Below, one piece after another: positions 3,519-54,409 of a DNA stretch of 64,000 nucleotides (positions are counted from its first letter, which is position 1; every line of letters starts with the position of its first letter). Below the pieces are notes generated by a model. The model saw nothing but the letters and a program-made list of their open reading frames with translations. It was not told the origin of the DNA and did not search any database. This DNA comes from Vulcanimicrobiota bacterium. Lineage in GTDB: Bacteria > Vulcanimicrobiota > Vulcanimicrobiia > Vulcanimicrobiales > Vulcanimicrobiaceae. The stretch lies in NCBI GenBank assembly GCA_963833095.1, contig CAWHWQ010000008.1, positions 128,001 through 192,000 of the forward strand. Direction: 5' to 3'. The position numbers and the translations under genes were made by a program.

Positions 3519-4399
3519 GACGCAGGTGACTCGTCGAGCACGCGCACGAGCTCGCGCGCGTACATGCCGTCGAGGAACTGTCCGCGTGCCAGCGAGCGCA
3601 TCCACTCCGGCGCCTTTTCGCTGGTTGCGATTCCCGCATAGACAGCCAGTAACGAGTCAGGAAGCAAATAGCGCGCGCGCAGCAGGTTTACCGGATGCGC
3701 GCCAGTGGCCATCCGCGCTCGGGGTGAGGCCTGCTTTTCAAGAAAGTGTCGCGCCATGCGCGCCCGCTCGATGGCCTTGCGCGTCTCGACTTCGAGCGTG
3801 TTGTCCGCCGGTGATTTGATATGCCAGAGGTACGCGTCCCACGCAAAACGCCAATGGACGCCGGCTTCGCGCAACCGCACGCCCAGTTCGGTATCTTCCC
3901 AGCCGTACAGATGAAAGGCCTCATCAAATCCGCCGACCGCATCGATCGCGTGCTTTGGCAGAGAGACGTTACACGTGCACAAGAACGCGCGCGAGTAGTT
4001 GGCAAGGGCTGGCTTTGGCCGGTCGTCGTATGAGGGGACGTTGAGGATGGGGCCGTTTACGATGAGGTTTCCGGTACCGTGCGCGGCTTCGTGCGCAGCG
4101 AGAAAGGCCGGGGGCAACTGCACGTCATCATCGATAAAGAGCACCAAGTAGCCTTGGGCCACCGCGATGCCGCGGTTGCGCGCTTTGCCGCGATTGGGCT
4201 GCGGCTCGAAGACATATTGTACCGGGTAACGCCCACGCTCCGTTTGCCATTTGACGACGTCTTTGGTGTCGTCGCTCGACCCGTTATCAACCACGATGAG
4301 CTCGAATGAGGGCGCACCGATCTGCTCCTCGAGCGACGTGAGCGCGCGCGCGAGGTAGTCGGAGCGATCTTTGGTAGCGATAATGACGGAGATGCGCAT
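3515..4399 (-). CDS. Glycosyltransferase family 2
   Basis: ISVIIATKDR, VDNGSSD, FIDDD and YGWEDTELG motifs. Confidence 0.9.
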   Translation of the reverse strand: MRISVIIATKDRSDYLARALTSLEEQIGAPSFELIVVDNGSSDDTKDVVKWQTERGRYPVQYVFEPQPNRGKARNRGIAVAQGYLVLFIDDDVQLPPAFLAAHEAAHGTGNLIVNGPILNVPSYDDRPKPALANYSRAFLCTCNVSLPKHAIDAVGGFDEAFHLYGWEDTELGVRLREAGVHWRFAWDAYLWHIKSPADNTLEVETRKAIERARMARHFLEKQASPRARMATGAHPVNLLRARYLLPDSLLAVYAGIATSEKAPEWMRSLARGQFLDGMYARELVRVLDESPAS

Positions 4400-4419
4400 T
4401 CAATAAAGCTAAGGGTCGG

Positions 4420-5637
4420 TTATGAACCTGCGAGCTGGATGAGCGATTCGGCCATGCGGTCCGCTGCCCCCACGTGATCCGCATAGAGCGCCGCCAGCAG
4501 CTCGCGGCTGCGCGATAGCCAGGCGCCGTCGTCAAGTCGTTCCAAGGCGACGCGCCCCACGCGGCCTGGGGTAACGGTTCCGTGCAACTCGCAGACCAGT
4601 GACTCGTCGGCGTCCATGTTGGGTTGCGTGTGGAACGTGAACCGACGCGAAACGGCCACCGCGGCCGCCCGCTTGAGCGGCGTTCCGATCAGCGGAATGC
4701 GGTCGAGATAGGTCAGCGGCCCGTTGAACGTAATGATCTCGGGGGCGTTGAGCGGCGTGATCGTAATCATCGGTACGCCCAGGACCGCAAGCTCGATCGT
4801 CTTCGTCCCCGGAATGGTGACCACCAACCGCGCGTGCATCGCGGCAGCAAGCGCGTTGTGCAGAATCGGAAAGCGCCGCTCGCCCTCGCCCAGCGCGAGA
4901 AACGCGCGCCCCCCCTCCTCGATCAACCGGCCGCGCTGCGCCCAGATACGGGGATGCCCGCCGCGTTCGATCGCCGCGCGCACGTCGGCAAGCGGCGTGA
5001 AGGGCGAAAGGCCAAAGGCAATGGGCAACTCGGGCCGCTCGCGCGCGATACGCAGCGCCATCGTAAAGAAGAACGGAATGAGATTGTCAACCTCATAGCC
5101 TCGTGAGCCGGGCATCACTAAGATCCCGCCTTGCGGCGCGCCCTCCTCGAGCGGCTGCTGCGCTTCGAGCAGCGCGCCGTCGATGGCGAGGTTGCCGACA
5201 CGCTCGATGCGATCCGCCGGCGTCTGCCACGCGCGCAGTTGCTCGACGTTCTTCTCGTCAACGGCAAAGAAACGCGCGAAGCGCTCACGATACGCGCGCT
5301 TGGAAAATTTGTAGGTCGACGCGGTTCCGCCCAGCCGCGAGCGCAAACGCTGGGCGTGCATCAGATCGCCACCGAGGTATTGCACCACATCGACGCGGTC
5401 CGGCAGGCCCGGAACGCTGCGGCCGAGCGCCACCCGCAGATACGTCTTGGGATCATACACATGCGCGCTTGGAAACAGCCGTCGCGCAAGCTGCGCCTCA
5501 TAACCGGTCGCATAGTCGTCGGGCACACAAAAGAGATGCACTTCGAGATCGGGGTCACGTTCGTAGAGCCGGCGCACGAGCGGGCGAAACCAGCCCGCGA
5601 CCTCTCCCGGACCGTTCGCCGTGAATGCGATTCTCAT
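4420..5637 (-). CDS. Lipid-A-disaccharide synthase (LpxB)-like GT-B protein
   Basis: MRIAFTANGPGE start; VGNL, MPGSR and PGTKTIELAVLGVPM motifs resemble LpxB; LPS context. Confidence 0.7.
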   Translation of the reverse strand: MRIAFTANGPGEVAGWFRPLVRRLYERDPDLEVHLFCVPDDYATGYEAQLARRLFPSAHVYDPKTYLRVALGRSVPGLPDRVDVVQYLGGDLMHAQRLRSRLGGTASTYKFSKRAYRERFARFFAVDEKNVEQLRAWQTPADRIERVGNLAIDGALLEAQQPLEEGAPQGGILVMPGSRGYEVDNLIPFFFTMALRIARERPELPIAFGLSPFTPLADVRAAIERGGHPRIWAQRGRLIEEGGRAFLALGEGERRFPILHNALAAAMHARLVVTIPGTKTIELAVLGVPMITITPLNAPEIITFNGPLTYLDRIPLIGTPLKRAAAVAVSRRFTFHTQPNMDADESLVCELHGTVTPGRVGRVALERLDDGAWLSRSRELLAALYADHVGAADRMAESLIQLAGS

Positions 5638-5641
5638 GGCG

Positions 5642-6139
5642 TTACGATCGGTATCGCGCGACGATCTCGCCGATAAGGTCGGTTGTGCTGCGTCCGGCGA
5701 GATGCGGCGCGAGGCGGACCTCGCCGCCGTGCGCGAGCACGACCGCGCGTTCGGGAAGATCCTCTTCGCGATACTGCGCGCTTTTGACGTGCACGTCGGG
5801 GCGAATCCGTTCCAGGAGCGCTTCCGGCGTCGCCTCGCCGAATTCGACGACCGCGTCGACGCTGCGCAGCGCGCAAAGCAGTTTTGCCCGATCCGCAAAC
5901 GGAACGATCGGCCGCCGTTCGCCCTTGAGCAAGCGCACCGACGCATCGCCGTTGAGCCCGACGATCAGGATGTCACCTTGCGAGCGCGCCCAGGCCAAAT
6001 ACTCCACGTGTCCAGCGTGCAGTACATCGAAGACGCCGTTCGTGAAGACGACGCGCCGGCCACGCGTCCGCTGTTCCTCGCGCCACGCGCTCGCCGCATC
6101 CGCGTCAAGCAACGCGCCGAACAACTCAGGCGCTGCCAT
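5642..6139 (-). CDS. rfaE2: D-glycero-beta-D-manno-heptose 1-phosphate adenylyltransferase
   Basis: VFTNGVFDVLHAGH, GLNGDASVRLLKGERRP and GRSTT motifs. Confidence 0.93.
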   Translation of the reverse strand: MAAPELFGALLDADAASAWREEQRTRGRRVVFTNGVFDVLHAGHVEYLAWARSQGDILIVGLNGDASVRLLKGERRPIVPFADRAKLLCALRSVDAVVEFGEATPEALLERIRPDVHVKSAQYREEDLPERAVVLAHGGEVRLAPHLAGRSTTDLIGEIVARYRS

Positions 6140-7109
6140 GCTCGATCAGCGCCAAGATCTCGTCGCCGCTCGCGGTTGCGGTTCCGAGTTTCTCCACCAC
6201 CGCACCGGCCGCGAAGTTTGCCAATTGCATGGCGCGTTCGATCGGCGCGCCGGCCGCGAGCGCAAGCGAGAGCACCGCGATCACCGTGTCGCCCGCGCCC
6301 GAAACGTCAAAGACCGTACGCGCAACCGACGGGATTGCGAAGCGCTCGCCCTGCGAACCGAAAAGCGCCATACCGTGCTCACCGCGCGTTATTACGACGT
6401 AGCGGCAGCGCAGTCGCTCGAGCAATTTCGCACCTGCGCGCTCGAGCGAGGCGTCGTCGATAATCCGCACCCCGCTGCCGGTTTCGGCTTCATGAACGTT
6501 CGGCGCGACGCACGTGACACCGGTAAAGAGATCGAGGTTTTGGGGTTTGGGATCAGCCAGGACCAATGGACACGCGCGCGCCGCTTCGACAACCTCCGCG
6601 CCCAGCAACCCTTTTGCGTAATCGCTGAGGATCACCGCATCGCACGATCCCGCTCGCTCGCGTACGTATGCAACGATGCGCGCCCGATCGATCGCCTGCA
6701 GAGGCGCGGCATCTTCCCAATCAGCACGCACGACTTGCTGGTTGTGCGCGACGATGCGCGTCTTACGCGTCGTCGGGCGATCGCGCACGGTAAACACGCC
6801 TCGATCATCGACCGATTCTTCGCGCAGCATGCGTCGCACGTCGGACGCAAACGCATCCTCGCCGACGGTTCCGACGAACTCAACGCGCGCACCGAGCGCG
6901 ACCAGATTGTTGGCAACGTTGCCCGCGCCGCCAAGCGTAAACGAGTGATCCGAAACCGCAACGACCGGTACAGGCGCCTCGGGCGAGATGCGCGAGACGG
7001 TTCCCCAGATCCACTCATCGATCATCAGGTCGCCGACGACGAGGATCGAGCGGCCGCGCATCCCCTCGACCAGGGCGCGCGCATCGCTGGTGAGAAGCGT
7101 TGCGCTCAC
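6126..7109 (-). CDS. rfaE1: D-glycero-beta-D-manno-heptose-7-phosphate kinase
   Basis: VGDLMIDE, RISPEAPVPV, SDYAKG and DVSGAGDT motifs. Confidence 0.93.
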   Translation of the reverse strand: MSATLLTSDARALVEGMRGRSILVVGDLMIDEWIWGTVSRISPEAPVPVVAVSDHSFTLGGAGNVANNLVALGARVEFVGTVGEDAFASDVRRMLREESVDDRGVFTVRDRPTTRKTRIVAHNQQVVRADWEDAAPLQAIDRARIVAYVRERAGSCDAVILSDYAKGLLGAEVVEAARACPLVLADPKPQNLDLFTGVTCVAPNVHEAETGSGVRIIDDASLERAGAKLLERLRCRYVVITRGEHGMALFGSQGERFAIPSVARTVFDVSGAGDTVIAVLSLALAAGAPIERAMQLANFAAGAVVEKLGTATASGDEILALIEHGSA

Positions 7110-7111
7110 AG

Positions 7112-7285
7112 GTGCCTCGCTCCGTGAGCAGCGGTACTTTCGTTGCAGTCATCGGCCAGCGCGGGCAAGACGCGATGAGCGACAAAAGCAGCGCTTTGCG
7201 AGCGAAGAGCAACGATGTCCGCGCTGAGCCGATGACGCAACGCGAAGGGCTGGGCGAAAGCACCGGTGTTCACGGAGCGAGGCAC
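7112..7285. repeat. 174-bp imperfect palindrome (MITE/REPIN-like) between gmhA and rfaE1
   Basis: Perfect 16-bp terminal inverted repeat GTGCCTCGCTCCGTGA / TCACGGAGCGAGGCAC, with further pairing of 7128-7167 to 7216-7269. Confidence 0.85.
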
Positions 7286-7878
7286 TAGATGTGATCCTCG
7301 AAGATCAATCGTTGTTCGACGAGATCGCAGATGATGTGCGCCATCACCTGATGCACTTCTTGCACGATCGCGGCATAGCCATCGGGCCCGATGAGCGCCA
7401 GGTCGCTGAAATCCATCACCGCACCGCCGCCGTTCCCGGTAAAGGCGATCGTAAGCGCGCCCTTCTTCTGCGCCATTTCGAGCGCAAGCACAATGTTGCG
7501 CGAAGTGCCGCTGGTAGTCATCCCGATCACCACGTCGCCCGCCTGCACGAAGGCTTGCACTTGGCGTGCAAAGACGTCGTCGTAGCCGTAGTCATTGCCG
7601 ACGCAGGTGAGCGTCGACGTGTTGACCGAGAGCGCTTCGCTGTTGAGTCCCGGGCGTTCGCGCAGGTAGCGGCCTGAGAGTTCGGCGGCCATATGCTGAG
7701 CTTCAGCCGCGCTTCCGCCGTTACCGCACCAGTAGATCCGCTTACTGTCGCGCAGCGCCGCCACGATCGCATCGACGATTGCTTCGACCTCGCGCTGATA
7801 GTGCTTCATATCGCGCAGAACCGCGCGATCTTCCAACAACGCGTCGAAGCCGCGTTGGGCTTTATAATCGATTTTCAT
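7285..7878 (-). CDS. gmhA: D-sedoheptulose 7-phosphate isomerase
   Basis: CGNGGSAAEAQH, GNDYGY, TTSGTS and VQEVH motifs. Confidence 0.95.
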   Translation of the reverse strand: MKIDYKAQRGFDALLEDRAVLRDMKHYQREVEAIVDAIVAALRDSKRIYWCGNGGSAAEAQHMAAELSGRYLRERPGLNSEALSVNTSTLTCVGNDYGYDDVFARQVQAFVQAGDVVIGMTTSGTSRNIVLALEMAQKKGALTIAFTGNGGGAVMDFSDLALIGPDGYAAIVQEVHQVMAHIICDLVEQRLIFEDHI

Positions 7879-8327
7879 GGCGCGATCCAGAAGAGCTCAT
7901 CTCCCTGCGAGACCAGCTCGCCGTTCTCCGGAATGACGCGAGCGATACTTCCGCTGTAATCGCTTTGAATTTCGTTGAAGAGTTTCATCGCTTCCAAAAT
8001 GCAAAGCACCGACCCCACCTCGACGCGATCGCCGAGATTCACGAACGGTTCGGCGTCCGGTGAGGACGAGCGATAAAAGACACCGGTCAGCGGTGCGGTC
8101 ACCCGCTTGACGTTTGACGGTGCGACCGGGGCGCTCGCGGCCTCCGATGCCGAAGGGGCGGCGTATCCACCGGCACCGATCGCCGGTGCCACGATCTGCG
8201 CGCCCGCTTCGCGGCGCACGAGTTCGTAGACCGCATCGCCAACCTTGACTTTTATCCGGTCGAGATCGTGCTCGTGCATGATGTCGAGCAGAGAATGGAT
8301 CGTCTCGGATTCCTCTTCGAATGCCAT
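7875..8327 (-). CDS. accB: Acetyl-CoA carboxylase biotin carboxyl carrier protein
   Basis: LEAMKLFNEI biotinylation motif and Ala/Pro linker. Confidence 0.95.
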   Translation of the reverse strand: MAFEEESETIHSLLDIMHEHDLDRIKVKVGDAVYELVRREAGAQIVAPAIGAGGYAAPSASEAASAPVAPSNVKRVTAPLTGVFYRSSSPDAEPFVNLGDRVEVGSVLCILEAMKLFNEIQSDYSGSIARVIPENGELVSQGDELFWIAP

Positions 8328-51072: not shown

Positions 51073-51166
51073 CGCCTCCTATCGTATCAGGACGGTTCCA
51101 TGCCGCTTCGCGGCGCCGCACATCCTGTGCTCGGAACCTTCCTCACCATCCTGGCGATCGCGAAAA

Positions 51167-51182
51167 TGTTCCCCGTGAAACA
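51167..51182. promoter_or_regulatory. parS: parS-like site 1
   Basis: TGTTCCCCGTGAAACA matches TGTTNCACGTGAAACA at 15/16; upstream of the parAB operon. Confidence 0.8.
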
Positions 51183-51289
51183 TTTGGTGATTATCCCTTG
51201 ACCGCACGTATCCGGCGGAAAGGATTTTTCGCCATTCCAGGTTGGAACGGCGCTGAAAAGCGACTCATCTGAGAGGATTCTCACTCCTG

Positions 51290-51318
51290 TTGAAACCGAA
51301 ATTGGACCAACGTAGACT
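51290..51318 (+). promoter_or_regulatory. Sigma70-type promoter for the 62-aa passenger ORF
   Basis: TTGAAA-17 nt-TAGACT, followed by AAGGAGG at 51334-51340. Confidence 0.6.
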
Positions 51319-51348
51319 TGAGGCATCAGGGCTAAGGAGGCCCAAGCT

Positions 51349-51537
51349 ATGATGCCCGCAGACGAACCCTTCGCTGTGACCAGAGTGATCGGCACCGCCC
51401 ACGATTTGGTTCAAATGCTTCGTGGCTACGGTCAACCCGCAGTTACTCCAAGCGCGGTCGTTGACGGCAAGAGCCTCAAGGACGCGCTGCTGGGCCTGCG
51501 GAGCGTTATCGACGAATTCTTAGCGGGGAAGCTCTAA
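51349..51537 (+). CDS. 62-aa hypothetical IS passenger protein
   Basis: Strong RBS and promoter; amphipathic C-terminal helix LKDALLGLRSVIDEFL. Confidence 0.65.
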   Translation: MMPADEPFAVTRVIGTAHDLVQMLRGYGQPAVTPSAVVDGKSLKDALLGLRSVIDEFLAGKL

Positions 51538-51655
51538 GAATCGCGTTCCGATTCCGCCTTAGCTACCTCTGCCGCCGCAAGCTTGCCGTACCAGGTAAGG
51601 AACTCCTCGCTGTGCTCGACGCCGAAAGCGATGATCGACCTCGGCGACAGCCTTT

Positions 51656-51808
51656 TTACTCAGCCGTTTCTTTAACGCGGAGCCGGATTGCGAGCAGCTT
51701 GCGGTTCTCGTCCTCAGTAAGTTCGGGACGGCTAATCTCGACGAGATTTTCAAGTTCGTCCTCATCCGGATCGCGAGCTTTGCGCGTTCGTTTGGCCTTC
51801 TCTTCCAC
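51656..51808 (-). CDS. 50-aa charged passenger ORF, possibly truncated
   Basis: TGCTATAGT extended -10 just upstream of GTG; MEEKAKRTRKARDPDEDELENLVEISRPELTEDENRKLLAIRLRVKETAE. Confidence 0.4.
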   Translation of the reverse strand: MEEKAKRTRKARDPDEDELENLVEISRPELTEDENRKLLAIRLRVKETAE

Positions 51809-51954
51809 GGGAAGGCCACTATAGCACGTTGATCCGCGAATTTGCTTCGATCATCCGCAAAAAGAGCAGGATAGCGGATTTTCCTCGGGGAACAGCATCG
51901 AACACACGGTCGCGAGGATGAAGCCTACGCTTCGCCCAAACGGCCAAGTCCCGA

Positions 51955-51989
51955 AAGGGAAGGGCGCCAACGTTGCAACGCTGACGCCC
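51955..51989 (-). terminator. Hairpin downstream of the tRNA-like gene
   Basis: GGGCGTCAGCGT-TGCA-ACGTTGGCGCCC followed by TTCCCTTT. Confidence 0.45.
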
Positions 51990-52008
51990 ATTGGACCGGT
52001 TCTGGGAC

Positions 52009-52081
52009 CTCCCGGGGTCGGAATCGAACCGACAGCCTGACCATGGACAGTGGACCGCTCTACCATTGAGCTACACCGGGA
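52009..52081 (-). tRNA. Atypical tRNA-like gene, anticodon GTC (Asp), inside the IS
   Basis: Cloverleaf with D arm GCTC/GAGC and T arm GTCGG-TTCGATT-CCGAC. Bulged acceptor stem, T-T mismatch in the anticodon stem, C37, no adjacent CCA. Confidence 0.75.
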
Positions 52082-52313
52082 TCAAGGAACGAGGGCGAGG
52101 CCGCCAGCCTCGCCTTTTCCTATCCAAGGGTCCCGTTGCGTCGTTACTCTGCCCGAGTGCCCACTCCTTGTGATCGACCTGTGGATAGACCGCAATATAA
52201 TGTGCACGTTGTGTGCAGGAGCTTCAAAAACACAAGATATAGCGGGTCGATTTTCTCCCTGACCGCACGTAAAATGCCAACCAGGTGGCATGTCGGCCAC
52301 CTAGCTTAGAAGC

Positions 52314-53234
52314 ATGGCTTCTAAGACGAACCTGGCCCCCGTGCAAAAGTATACGTTCAAGGATTTCGAGCAAGACTTCCCAACCGAGCGCGCATGCATG
52401 GAATGGCTGCTGGAGCACTTCTATCCCTACGGCATCCATTGCCTGACCTGCGGTGAGGTCCGGCCTCACCATCTGCTCAAGACTCGCCCGAAGGTCGCCT
52501 CATGCGACTACTGCGGGTCGCACACACATCCGACAGCCGGTACGATCTTCCACAAGTCGCGCACGTCGCTGCGGACGTGGTTCCACGCGATCTTCCTGAT
52601 GAGCGCCACCCGATGCGGAATCTCGGCCATGCAACTAATGCGCGAAACCGGCGTCACCTACAAGACTGCCTGGCGCATGTTCAATCAGATTCGCGCCATG
52701 CTCGCCGAGAACGTCGTGCTCGAAGGCAAGGTCGAAGCGGACGAGACCTACATGGGCGGCTACAAGCGCGGCAAGAAGTATCGCGCCGGTGTCGGCAAGA
52801 CCGTTGTCGCTGGTGCGGTCGAACGTGGCGGCAAAGTGTTCGCGTACCTGCCGAAAGACGGACGCGATGGCTACGAATTAACCGAGAACATTCGAGCGCG
52901 CGTGATGCCCGAAACAATGATCTTCACGGACGAGGCGCTTCAATACAGTCGTCTGTCACGCATGGGCCAAGGCTATCTTCACCGTCGCATCCATCACGCG
53001 CAAAAAGTATATGTGCGCGGCGACGTGCATACGAATACGATCGAGGGGTTCTGGTCGTTAGTAAAAGGCGGGATTCGCGGGGTGTATCACTCGGTCTCCG
53101 CCAAGCATTTGCAAGGGTACCTGAACGAATACACCTTTCGCTACAATCACCGCGACGACGCGCGTCCTATGTTTAGGACTTTTTGCTCGAACGTCCGGAA
53201 GGACTTTGTGGCGATTCGCCGTCGCGTCGTCTAA
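52314..53234 (+). CDS. IS1595-family DDE transposase
   Basis: CxxC...CxxC zinc ribbon, GTIF, GV.YKTAWRM HTH, EADETY, TDE, HTNTIEGFW and YLNEYTFRYN.R. Confidence 0.96.
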   Translation: MASKTNLAPVQKYTFKDFEQDFPTERACMEWLLEHFYPYGIHCLTCGEVRPHHLLKTRPKVASCDYCGSHTHPTAGTIFHKSRTSLRTWFHAIFLMSATRCGISAMQLMRETGVTYKTAWRMFNQIRAMLAENVVLEGKVEADETYMGGYKRGKKYRAGVGKTVVAGAVERGGKVFAYLPKDGRDGYELTENIRARVMPETMIFTDEALQYSRLSRMGQGYLHRRIHHAQKVYVRGDVHTNTIEGFWSLVKGGIRGVYHSVSAKHLQGYLNEYTFRYNHRDDARPMFRTFCSNVRKDFVAIRRRVV

Positions 53235-53358
53235 CAGCCTTACCGAGATCACGCATGAAATCCTCACGCGTGAACGATTCTAGACCTTGCGTTTTCATAG
53301 CAGCCAACGAATCCTTACTTGTTGCCGAATTGCTGCCTTGGTTTATGAGGTCTGTCAT
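53173..53358 (-). CDS. 61-aa ORF overlapping the transposase 3' end in antisense
   Basis: AGGA RBS; helix FTREDFMRDLGKAVRR; directly downstream of the Ntn gene. Confidence 0.5.
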   Translation of the reverse strand: MTDLINQGSNSATSKDSLAAMKTQGLESFTREDFMRDLGKAVRRRDGESPQSPSGRSSKKS

Positions 53359-53379
53359 AATGGTTCCTAACTTCTCTTC

Positions 53380-54174
53380 TCACCGAGTATTTGCTTTATT
53401 TGCACGGGTTTGAAAGCCATCCATCCGCGTGATGGTCGCGACGTCTATGGCCCCTCCAACCCCGCGAACTCCGATCATCCACTGCTGTAGTGTTATCGTC
53501 ACCCGAAGCATAGAAATAACTACGTCGATGCAGTCCTGAAGGGGAAGAAACTGCCAAGGGATAGGTAAGGCGAACTGCTCCTTAAGCTTCTTTTCAAGGT
53601 CAGGGTCGTGCTTTCCGAGGATGTTCTCTACCACTTCAGGTAAGCGGAAATCGAAGCCCTGAATCAGCCGATCTACCACCTCGCGTTGACCGCCCCACTG
53701 CACCCCAAAGTCCGGTAGGCTTTCCACGGGCTTGAGATTTATTGGGACCTTCACCTCAAATGCGCGCCCGTATGGAGCGCCTTCGTCATAACCGGCCACG
53801 AAGAAAATCATCTCTTGGCCTTGCGGGGGGTTCGGGTCCATGCCCGCTTTCTTCCATTGCTTATCAAAGAAAGCGCCAAGGCGCTCGGCGAATTGTTCGA
53901 CGGAGAGCCGCTGCGCCCCGATTTCAGTGTCGAACTCGGGCATAAAGCTGACTGCCGTTCGAGGCTCATTTTGACCGATGACCCCGGCGCCAAAGGTGAC
54001 CGCAGCCACATACGGCTGAGCCTTTGAGGTTAGCAGCTTACTCGCGTGGTCGTAGGTCGCAGGAATGAGGACCTGTTGTCCATTTGGCAGTTGCTGCATT
54101 ACCGTTAAGGTGACCCGGCTGTCGGCGGCGAGCACGATCCCTTCCGGGCCTTTAAACACAAGTCCGAGAGACAT
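53380..54174 (-). CDS. Proteasome-beta/HslV-like Ntn hydrolase (IS passenger), 264 aa
   Basis: M-SLGLVFKGPEGIVLAADSRVT, FVAGYD and VGGAIDVATIT; TACAAT -10 at 54183-54188. Confidence 0.75.
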   Translation of the reverse strand: MSLGLVFKGPEGIVLAADSRVTLTVMQQLPNGQQVLIPATYDHASKLLTSKAQPYVAAVTFGAGVIGQNEPRTAVSFMPEFDTEIGAQRLSVEQFAERLGAFFDKQWKKAGMDPNPPQGQEMIFFVAGYDEGAPYGRAFEVKVPINLKPVESLPDFGVQWGGQREVVDRLIQGFDFRLPEVVENILGKHDPDLEKKLKEQFALPIPWQFLPLQDCIDVVISMLRVTITLQQWMIGVRGVGGAIDVATITRMDGFQTRANKANTR

Positions 54175-54273
54175 GGGCGGGTATTGTAGCACGGCACGCT
54201 CGGCGGCTGCCATGGGCCGTAGGTCGGTGCGGTTACGTGCCGTGCGGGGATAATCACCAAACATTTTCGCAAT

Positions 54274-54289
54274 TGTTTCACGGGGAACG
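54274..54289. promoter_or_regulatory. parS: parS-like site 2
   Basis: TGTTTCACGGGGAACG; 15-bp perfect inverted copy of site 1. Confidence 0.75.
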
Positions 54290-54409
54290 TGGCGGACGGC
54301 CAGCCTTCGAGGTTCCGCCGAGCGGGTTAGCCGGGCGATGAGCACCCCGACTGCGTCGCCTGTGCGAAGCGCGAGGCGCTTAGCGAGGCCGAATGTCGAA
54401 GGCGGCCCT

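Follow-up and report, generated by a model that had tools for sequence, protein, structure and literature searches.

A probable transporter insertion sequence of the IS1595 family with a predicted proteasome-like hydrolase gene and an irregular tRNA-like gene among its passengers

Background

Insertion sequences (ISs) are usually viewed as a bare transposase gene between two ends, and IS1595 is one of two families known to carry passengers. The locus described here raises the question of what an element of this family carries when most of its length is not transposase, and of whether the parts carried form one system. It lies in a stretch of 64,000 nucleotides, hereafter the window, of a Vulcanimicrobiota bacterium (assembly GCA_963833095.1, contig CAWHWQ010000008.1, positions 128,001 to 192,000), in which an IS1595-family element of 3,073 bp occupies positions 51186-54258. 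An original prediction, made from the sequence alone, had described an element with a tRNA-like RNA, an Ntn protease-like gene and microproteins, and had proposed this combination as a possible defence, addiction or host-manipulation module. We consider it highly probable that the stretch is an IS1595-family transporter IS (tIS) with passenger genes, moved as one unit and provided with a mosaic left arm and a slot for protease genes.

Borders and mobility of the element

The element has inverted ends of 29 nt, an 8-bp target-site duplication and an intact transposase gene. The outer left terminal inverted repeat (51186-51214, plus strand) and the right one (54230-54258, minus strand) both begin with GGTGATTATCCC and form inverted-repeat pair I1, the arms of which (51178-51214 and 54230-54266, 37 nt, 81% complementarity) include the duplicated 8 bp. 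The two copies of the duplication, AAACATTT, to which no strand applies, directly abut the outer left end (51178-51185) and the right end (54259-54266). The outer left end is nearly identical to the transposase-proximal end of a relative, L124.

The empty site was found in one contig of run X1 and in one of run X3 of the same study, both of which join position 51177 to position 54259. At this joint 3,081 bases are skipped, and the 8 letters shared by both sides are a single copy of the duplication. Within the population sampled the insertion is therefore polymorphic; all 3,073 bp move as one unit, and the insertion is probably recent. The intact inverted repeats, duplication and transposase of the original prediction are therefore borne out by pair I1, by AAACATTT on both sides, by the empty-site contigs and by the Pfam and NCBIfam matches given below. 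A single copy of the element is present in its own assembly (2.8 Mb in 8 contigs, 80.7% complete), and a search of plasmid DNA with the whole element gave no match. In a contig of run X3 the left end of the element adjoins a flank in which 20 different letters stand in place of about 100 bp (window 51082-51184), either because the site varies between strains or because the element has inserted at a second place.

The transposase and its family

The transposase (306 aa, 52314-53234, plus strand) is intact and belongs to the IS1595 family of DDE transposases. It matched the Pfam model DDE_Tnp_IS1595 (PF12762; 7.2e-34, 117.4 bits, cut-off 27) and the NCBIfam model transpos_IS1595 (NF033547; 4.7e-55, 186.8 bits, cut-off 75). 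Residues D143, D206 and E244 are invariant across 10 relatives, as are C43, C46, C64 and C67 of an N-terminal Cys4 region, on which the zinc-ribbon model PF12760 scored 19.9 bits, under its cut-off of 25.4. Both ends of the element read GGTGATTAT and fit GGnnATTAT, the end signature of the ISNwi1 group, of which the element would be a putative member; no paper naming ISNwi1 turned up in the literature search.

As the transposase gene accounts for only 921 of the 3,073 bp, about 70% of the element is other DNA placed on both sides of it, much as the two-thirds of cargo first estimated. The TnCentral preprint (10.1101/2021.05.26.445724) reports transporter ISs, which enclose passenger genes between their ends, in the IS1595 and IS66 families, and this agrees with the earlier statement that some IS1595 members carry passengers. 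The element fits the definition, the Ntn gene, the tRNA-like gene and an open reading frame (ORF) of 62 aa all lying within 51186-54258. It shares with the tISs of its family the IS1595-type DDE transposase, the Cys4 region, the short inverted ends, the 8-bp duplication and passengers inside, and it differs from them by a proteasome-like protease, an irregular tRNA, a convergent small gene and a duplicated left end. The literature search gave no description of proteasome-like protease or irregular tRNA passengers, of the convergent small gene or of the duplicated left end. The kind of element is known; new with respect to the literature searched are the passengers, the small gene and the double left end with its tRNA-like gene.

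The proteasome-like protein

The passenger gene on the right (53380-54174, minus strand) encodes a protein of 264 aa which is predicted to be a proteasome-beta-like N-terminal nucleophile (Ntn) hydrolase, Ser2 being the presumed nucleophile. The long ORF (53380-54345) extends beyond the right border of the element, and the start was set at the methionine at 54174 because relatives begin with MSLG; among 30 aligned relatives, all 23 that have no N-terminal extension start with M/V-S-L. The protein had no match in Pfam (E ≤ 0.1), NCBIfam, PADLOC or the sequences of the PDB, and the Pfam Proteasome profile (PF00227) was not matched, although in a neighbouring ESM Atlas cluster 15% of the members carry PF00227. 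Its family comprises at least 1,758 members (E ≤ 1e-3, among 3,296 candidates) from many phyla, and every named member is labelled 'hypothetical'.

An AlphaFold2 model built with 44 sequences reached a mean pLDDT of 89.3, and Foldseek against the PDB ranked 20S proteasome beta subunits at the top (E about 1e-9, probability 1.00). VIA-align, a scan of 48,161 chains that is independent of Foldseek, placed a 20S beta subunit at Z 18.4 (184 residues aligned, rmsd 3.2), Anbu at 17.6, BPH at 12.7 and HslV and connectase both at 11.5. The modelled fold is that of a proteasome beta subunit, and the Ntn protease-like gene recognised in the original prediction is supported by the model and by both structure searches. 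In the VIA-align superpositions residue 2 of the model falls on residue 1, the position of the catalytic Thr1, of several mature chains. Residues S2, D18 (16 residues past Ser2) and K46 are invariant in the 44 sequences, D18 and K46 being candidate counterparts of Asp17 and Lys33. These features fit a predicted proteasome-type hydrolase in which removal of Met1 alone would expose the serine nucleophile.

HslV, Anbu, BPH and the 22 further families treated by Fuchs, Alva and Lupas 2021 (PMC8665760) have the same fold as the model (Z 18.4-11.5). According to that source, the bacterial proteasome homologs resemble the Ntn protein in having no propeptide, in a nucleophile placed right after Met1 and, presumably, in Ser/Asp/Lys residues at the triad positions. 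Moreover, helices 178-186 and 193-201 of the model lie between helices 164-172 and 212-234 (core helices 3 and 4), and extra helices between helices 3 and 4 are also reported there for PMI-2 to PMI-6, the two being compared by description only. Unlike the known proteasome homologs, the Ntn gene has no adjoining partner ATPase, has no PF00227 match and is IS cargo; in the text of PMC8665760 'transpos' has 0 occurrences.

Protein searches of phages and plasmids with the Ntn protein gave no match. A scan of genome contigs with this single protein gave 112 pattern matches, none of which was confirmed; the genomic Ntn loci, of which 80 were compared, were obtained by an alignment-based contig scan. 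An IS1595-type transposase gene lies within 6 kb of the Ntn relative in 13 of these 80 loci. Compact elements in the order end, Ntn gene, small ORF, transposase gene, end are found among them, for example in L023 (5867-8542) and L078 (4641-7254). The recurrence of cargo in related elements, which the original prediction had made a test of its case, is thus observed, in these 13 loci and in the same layout of a more distant element, L007.

The convergent small gene and the protease slot

Between the Ntn gene and the transposase gene lies a second core gene of this IS subgroup. It encodes a conserved protein of 61 aa (53173-53358, minus strand), starts 21 bp past the Ntn stop codon, is convergent with the transposase gene and overlaps the last 62 bases of its 3' end. 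In an iterated search seeded with the window ORF, an ORF at the same position with the same C-terminal motif (F-T-K/R-x-D-F-x3-L-x-K-x-S-R) was found in 12 of 19 transposase-bearing loci. With a profile, the small gene was recovered in 12 of the 15 loci where transposase identity is 48% or more and in none of the 28 with more distant transposases, and several copies have clear ribosome-binding sites. The closest comparison is with G206, a genome of the same genus in which a short contig holds a related element sharing window 51898-53274: seven of the 15 motif codons differ synonymously and two change the residue (read by eye). That the 61-aa ORF could be a dead remnant of the trypsin-like gene of G206 was considered and dropped, since the same small gene occurs in those 12 of 19 loci. 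The original prediction had counted the microproteins as cargo, which does not hold for this one, a core gene of the IS.

Among 1.84 billion representative sequences the small-protein profile had 158 hits (E ≤ 1e-3). The majority are separate small proteins, 45-78 aa long, and in about 14 the hit is the C-terminal tail of a trypsin-like protease (333-372 aa). For the 12 small proteins Pfam gave only single chance-level matches. A complex prediction of transposase, Ntn protein and small protein scored 0.68-0.69 and speaks neither for nor against binding; in the controls the score was 0.00 with the small protein replaced and 0.69 with the transposase replaced.

The place occupied by the Ntn gene is filled differently in related elements. 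The metagenome set comprises 80 loci with transposases 47-57% identical, and 55 of them, with at least 1.2 kb behind the transposase gene, could be evaluated. A trypsin-like gene is present in 13 of the 55, and 11 trypsin-like ORFs end in the small-protein motif. In G206 the slot behind the transposase gene is taken not by an Ntn gene but by an ORF for a trypsin-like protease (partial, no Pfam match), and in G216, of another genus, by a retropepsin-like protease gene (PF13650, 24.8 bits, cut-off 24.3). One position in this IS subgroup is therefore shared by three unrelated protease folds, and the link between protease and IS is frequent and not obligatory. Behind the transposase gene of this subgroup the commonest neighbour, convergent with it, is a gene for a trypsin-like protease (about 340-370 aa) whose C-terminal tail is conserved (L153, L163, L165, L166, L170, L177, L178, L182, L187 and others). 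The G216 locus (L122; cargo at 4729-5769, 7006-7482 and 7455-7736) carries in addition a DUF3800 protein in its left arm, and its protease-slot ORFs include one of 93 aa weakly resembling DUF5678.

The left arm

A decayed copy of the left end lies inside the element (52245-52271, plus strand), 43 bp before the start codon of the transposase gene. It is related to the outer end by direct repeat D6 (52257-52271 against 51196-51210, 93%) and joined with the right end by pair I20. In basic relatives, which include L125 (2,042 bp), L183 (1,588 bp), L023 (2,676 bp), L078 and L124, the true left end stands 50-75 bp before the transposase gene. The place of the decayed end just before the transposase gene accordingly marks the left 1.06 kb as an add-on, and the element is a mosaic.

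An inner copy and an outer end with extra DNA between them were also found in G206, G216 and L007, and in all four cases, the window included, the extra DNA holds tRNA-like genes. The anticodon is GUC in the window and GCU in G206; G216 has a gene of 82 nt with a Leu-like body and GCC, and L007 has a class-II tRNA-like body with UGG plus a Gln-like gene. The L007 element, the transposase of which is 36% identical, is bounded by perfect ends of 27 nt. From the outer end inwards it contains an ORF, two tRNA-like genes, the inner end copy (8243-8261), the transposase gene and an Ntn homolog, after which comes the other end.

The identity between the window and G206 varies along the arm: it is 67% behind the tRNA-like gene, 59% in the tRNA-like body, 48% in the hairpin, 90% in the spacer, 92% in the inner end copy and 90.5% in the leader before the transposase gene. 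Of the 401 genomes of the phylum searched with the left arm, G206 alone matched over a long stretch, and the 12 remaining matches measured 28-68 bases. No second copy of the arm is present in the assembly, and 22 bases of the conserved spacer, scanned for in metagenomes, had 0 matches.

In ISEcp1-type mobilisation, neighbouring DNA is captured by way of an alternative end. The present element resembles such a capture in that a former end is kept inside and extra DNA extends up to the end now used; the differences are that another IS family is concerned and that the outer end is here a good copy, not a weak surrogate. In nine of the 80 genomic Ntn loci (L003, L032, L035, L041, L059, L066, L070, L074 and L079) a host tRNA gene lies 156-488 bp upstream of the Ntn gene on the same strand, and L149 too has a host tRNA gene within 500 bp upstream. 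Most of these tRNAs score 62-74 bits and therefore look ordinary, and their adjacency is far above the expectation from tRNA density. Elements of this kind thus appear to land often beside tRNA genes, and capture of the left arm beside such a gene is a plausible route.

The tRNA-like gene

The tRNA-like gene of the window (52009-52081, minus strand, 73 nt) has the anticodon GUC and an Asn-type acceptor (U1-A72, G73). The tRNA-like RNA of the original prediction is confirmed by ARAGORN, which calls it tRNA-Asp(GTC), and by Rfam, the tRNA model of which scored 49.2 bits (gathering score 29). The nearest host tRNA is a tRNA-Asn (78%, acceptor 5' strand identical); the host has a canonical tRNA-Asp elsewhere (contig C4), and this is not among the six tRNAs closest to the tRNA-like gene. 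In the ARAGORN drawing the seventh acceptor pair is U-C and three bases, one more than usual, precede the D stem. The anticodon stem has a U-U mismatch, the loop reads CUGUCCA with C at position 37, the variable region has 5 bases and no long arm, and CCA is not encoded. The Rfam alignment requires a deletion in the 3' acceptor strand. In an alternative drawing made by eye the gene would have an 8-bp acceptor and a 4-bp T stem with one U-C mismatch. The gene departs from a canonical tRNA-Asp in its acceptor, linker, anticodon stem, position 37 and likeness to host tRNAs.

Directly behind it lies a terminator-like hairpin with a T-rich tail (51962-51989, minus strand), which was found by the scan and is kept in G206, where the position holds a hairpin with different letters (alignment read by eye). 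On the other side a G+C-rich hairpin followed by TTTT (52094-52118, plus strand), read from the sequence and not listed in the terminator scan, also has a G206 counterpart with changed letters; it may form a barrier to read-through into the transposase gene. The G206 gene has the T arm of tRNA-Asn together with U1-A72 and G73, but the anticodon GCU and A33. By a hand count, at least 7 of the 17 acceptor, anticodon and T-stem pairs are changed on both sides between window and G206 and are still paired. With two sequences compared, these paired changes may reflect either selection on shape or replacement by another tRNA. We infer that the gene is kept as a structured RNA and is not an ordinary elongator tRNA.

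Irregular tRNAs and allo-tRNAs of soil bacteria (Mukai et al. 2017, PMC5389517) share with the tRNA-like gene a cloverleaf outside the standard form and an anticodon at odds with the body. Their setting of mobile elements in uncultured soil or water bacteria is also alike. Unlike the allo-tRNAs of that source the present gene has no long variable arm and no Ser identity; furthermore its carrier is exactly delimited, where PMC5389517 gives only the vicinity of toxin-antitoxin genes and one transposon-related ORF. Comparable irregular tRNAs are chargeable yet unused in translation according to the same source. Long variable arms are present in the IS-linked tRNA-like genes of L007, L107 and L110.

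Class-II tRNA genes with a Leu-like D arm and the proline anticodon UGG were observed in three different genomes, in L007 (8345-8440), L107 (2463-2557) and L110 (1153-1240), each adjoining an IS1595-type transposase gene. In the host assembly (80.7% complete) no asnS was found over the cut-off, and gatB is present. The gatB match (G000 contig C1, 131262-132686) is split over four reading-frame pieces, which suggests assembly frameshift errors or a broken gene.

Small ORFs and expression signals

Near the outer left end an ORF of 62 aa (51349-51537, plus strand) has an AAGGAGG ribosome-binding site. Among 5.8 billion clusters a single homolog was found (same start, 66% identity across 59 residues), and Pfam, NCBIfam and PADLOC gave no match. 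The ORF is preceded by a promoter-like site (TTGAAA, 17 nt, TAGACT; 51290-51318, plus strand; 9 of 12 matches), and a second such site (TCGACC, 16 nt, TATAAT; 52174-52201, plus strand; 10 of 12 matches) stands before the transposase gene in the stretch that is 90% identical to G206. The number of promoter-like sites in the region, 2 against 1.4 +/- 1.3 in shuffled sequences, is not above chance, and neither is that of terminator-like sites (8 against 4.0 +/- 2.0), both counts lying within the shuffle range. The claim that several parts have their own expression signals is thus not supported by site counts, and it stands for the terminator of the tRNA-like gene, which is kept through changed letters in a relative. 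Two minus-strand ORFs of the left arm, of 86 aa (51559-51819) and, nested in it, of 50 aa (51656-51808), have no family match and are probably not genes; their kinship with a 71-aa ORF at the same place in G206 was rejected, as the comparison shows no likeness. Of the predicted microproteins, the one at 53173-53358 is therefore conserved and the one at 51349-51537 has its single homolog, and these two minus-strand frames are without support.

Competing explanations

According to the preferred reading, a unit of 3,073 bp moved into an 8-bp site inside an intergenic palindrome, and its core is formed by the DDE transposase and the convergent 61-aa protein overlapping the 3' end of the transposase gene. 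A protease gene fills the slot that is bounded by the right end and the small gene, and this gene differs between relatives: it is proteasome-beta-like with Ser at the Thr1 position here, trypsin-like with the motif as C-terminal tail in most relatives, and retropepsin-like in one. The left 1.06 kb between the decayed former end and the newer outer end would be captured neighbouring DNA, consisting of a small ORF and of a tRNA gene followed by its terminator; the frequent position of Ntn relatives beside host tRNA genes is consistent with this. Protease and small protein together may serve the element, in transposition control or host retention, rather than host defence.

Several results weigh against parts of this reading. 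The Ntn gene is present in only two of the 55 evaluable metagenome elements of the subgroup, and 40 of the 55 have neither an Ntn nor a trypsin-like protease, so the element does not need a protease; likewise 67 of the 80 genomic Ntn loci have no nearby transposase, and the Ntn gene is therefore not tied to the IS. Repeats in three long proteins that look unrelated (5,236, 3,273 and 760 aa) are also hit by the small-protein profile, so that the motif may be a common short helix, and the only invariant residues are F34 and L38 in 60 sequences, or F34, L38 and K40 in 12. A tRNA occurs somewhere in four of the 80 metagenome loci, none shown inside an element and that of L183 outside the ends. The tRNA-like body with its 59% beside a 90% stretch is more than simple common descent can explain. 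As to the left arm, the capture of which we infer, the outer end is the better kept of the two, unlike what a makeshift surrogate would at first look like. The assignment to the ISNwi1 group is tentative and depends on the end signature, and for six ORFs run against PADLOC the one hit was to WYL, by the transposase and at chance level (E 0.0091).

The two left-end copies could also have arisen by nesting, if a basic IS (52245-54258) landed beside or inside a non-autonomous element that supplied the outer left end; the basic form does exist in L125, L183 and L023. The 8-bp duplication nevertheless flanks the outer and right ends, and what is missing from the empty-site contigs is precisely 51186-54258 together with one copy of the repeat; the last move therefore used the outer end. 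The assembly holds no other left-arm copy, and we regard such a composite origin as unlikely. Slightly more credit, though still less than even, is given to the left arm being a passive hitch-hiker, with a decaying tRNA pseudogene and a chance frame of 62 aa, so that only the transposase, the small protein and perhaps the protease matter. The irregularities of the tRNA-like gene, its 49.2 bits against 62-74 for ordinary tRNAs of the compared loci, the canonical tRNA-Asp elsewhere in the genome, the single homolog of the 62-aa ORF and the absence of a tRNA shown inside the metagenome elements all speak for it. It is at odds with the pairing kept in the 7 or more of 17 stem pairs that changed on both sides, with the terminator hairpin likewise kept in G206, and with the tRNA-like genes in the equivalent arm of G206, G216 and L007.

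That protease, small protein and tRNA-like RNA cooperate as one coherent defence, addiction or host-manipulation system is improbable in our judgement. In its favour, all three classes of part occur together in L007 in spite of a transposase just 36% identical. Ntn relatives often precede MazF/PemK-like genes (clusters in 10 and 7 of the 80 loci, one member each confirmed as PF02452) or Fic/Doc-like genes (four of 80), and irregular tRNAs of soil Acidobacteria are reported near toxin-antitoxin genes and a transposon-related ORF in PMC5389517. The window element itself contains no MazF/PemK-like, Fic/Doc-like or other toxin-antitoxin gene, its proteins matched none of the Pfam toxin and antitoxin models, and PADLOC recognised no system. 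Moreover the nearest relatives swap parts independently, G206 having a trypsin-like protease and another tRNA-like gene, and G216 a retropepsin-like protease, DUF3800 and yet another tRNA-like gene. The tRNA-like gene and the protease gene lie at opposite ends of the element as separate transcription units on either side of the transposase gene. With other cargo in the closest relatives, the Ntn gene in so few metagenome elements and no tRNA shown inside them, the module first proposed is not supported.

The preferred reading of a tIS with a mosaic left arm and a protease slot bears on several matters. A subgroup that keeps a second small gene and a slot of differing proteases hints at a role of proteolysis in the biology of the element. 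A large unnamed proteasome-like family, the members of which are all labelled hypothetical, gains a genomic context and a way between phyla, and the irregular tRNA genes seen near mobile genes in soil bacteria gain an exactly delimited carrier, for which capture beside host tRNA genes is a plausible origin. The functions of the cargo are predicted only, and all organisms concerned are uncultured. At the far end of speculation, and in our view very improbable, the IS lineage would carry a two-part host-manipulation kit of an exchangeable protease slot and a hybrid tRNA. Three folds exchanged in one slot, always upstream of the same small tail peptide, would then imply that the life cycle of the element depends on cleaving some target. 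The amidotransferase recognises tRNA-Asn by U1-A72; an RNA with an Asn-type acceptor and GUC, charged with Asp and then amidated, would place Asn at Asp codons and be an IS-borne mistranslating tRNA, an idea with which the class-II bodies with UGG or GCC anticodons of related elements fit.

The insertion site

The element is inserted in an intergenic palindrome of the flanking DNA (pair I3, 19 nt, 95% complementary), between genes for a CCA-adding enzyme and an amidotransferase. In 9 of 17 genus relatives these two genes lie 91-531 bp apart with no element between them, and among the genus relatives only G206 is shown with an IS at the same spot, beside the amidotransferase gene and in the opposite orientation. 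Inheritance of the insertion from a common ancestor was dropped in view of these empty relatives and of the reversed G206 copy, and the insertions of the window and of G206 are accordingly separate events at one hot spot. In G216 the element lies between the genes for rsmG and the CCA-adding enzyme, in a similar palindrome.

The flanks at 51157-51185 and 54259-54288 contain nested palindromes, and the G206 and G216 elements are placed in similar sequence, which suggests that target choice is directed by sequence or by a hairpin. Two other elements, L124 (G295, 4051-7004) and L125 (G211, 5909-7950), have the same orientation and a homologous position, some 100 bp before groES, in different genera. 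The 8-bp duplications of the two, CGTCCAAA and TTCGGCAG, represent one site in diverged form, so that either an old inherited insertion or very precise targeting is indicated. Finally, a segment of about 100 bp (54296-54408), placed between the right end of the element and the amidotransferase gene, recurs at no fewer than 8 other places of the genome and also in genus relatives, the copies being 73-87% identical. Read depth rises and contigs break there, and the segment looks like a small intergenic repeat.

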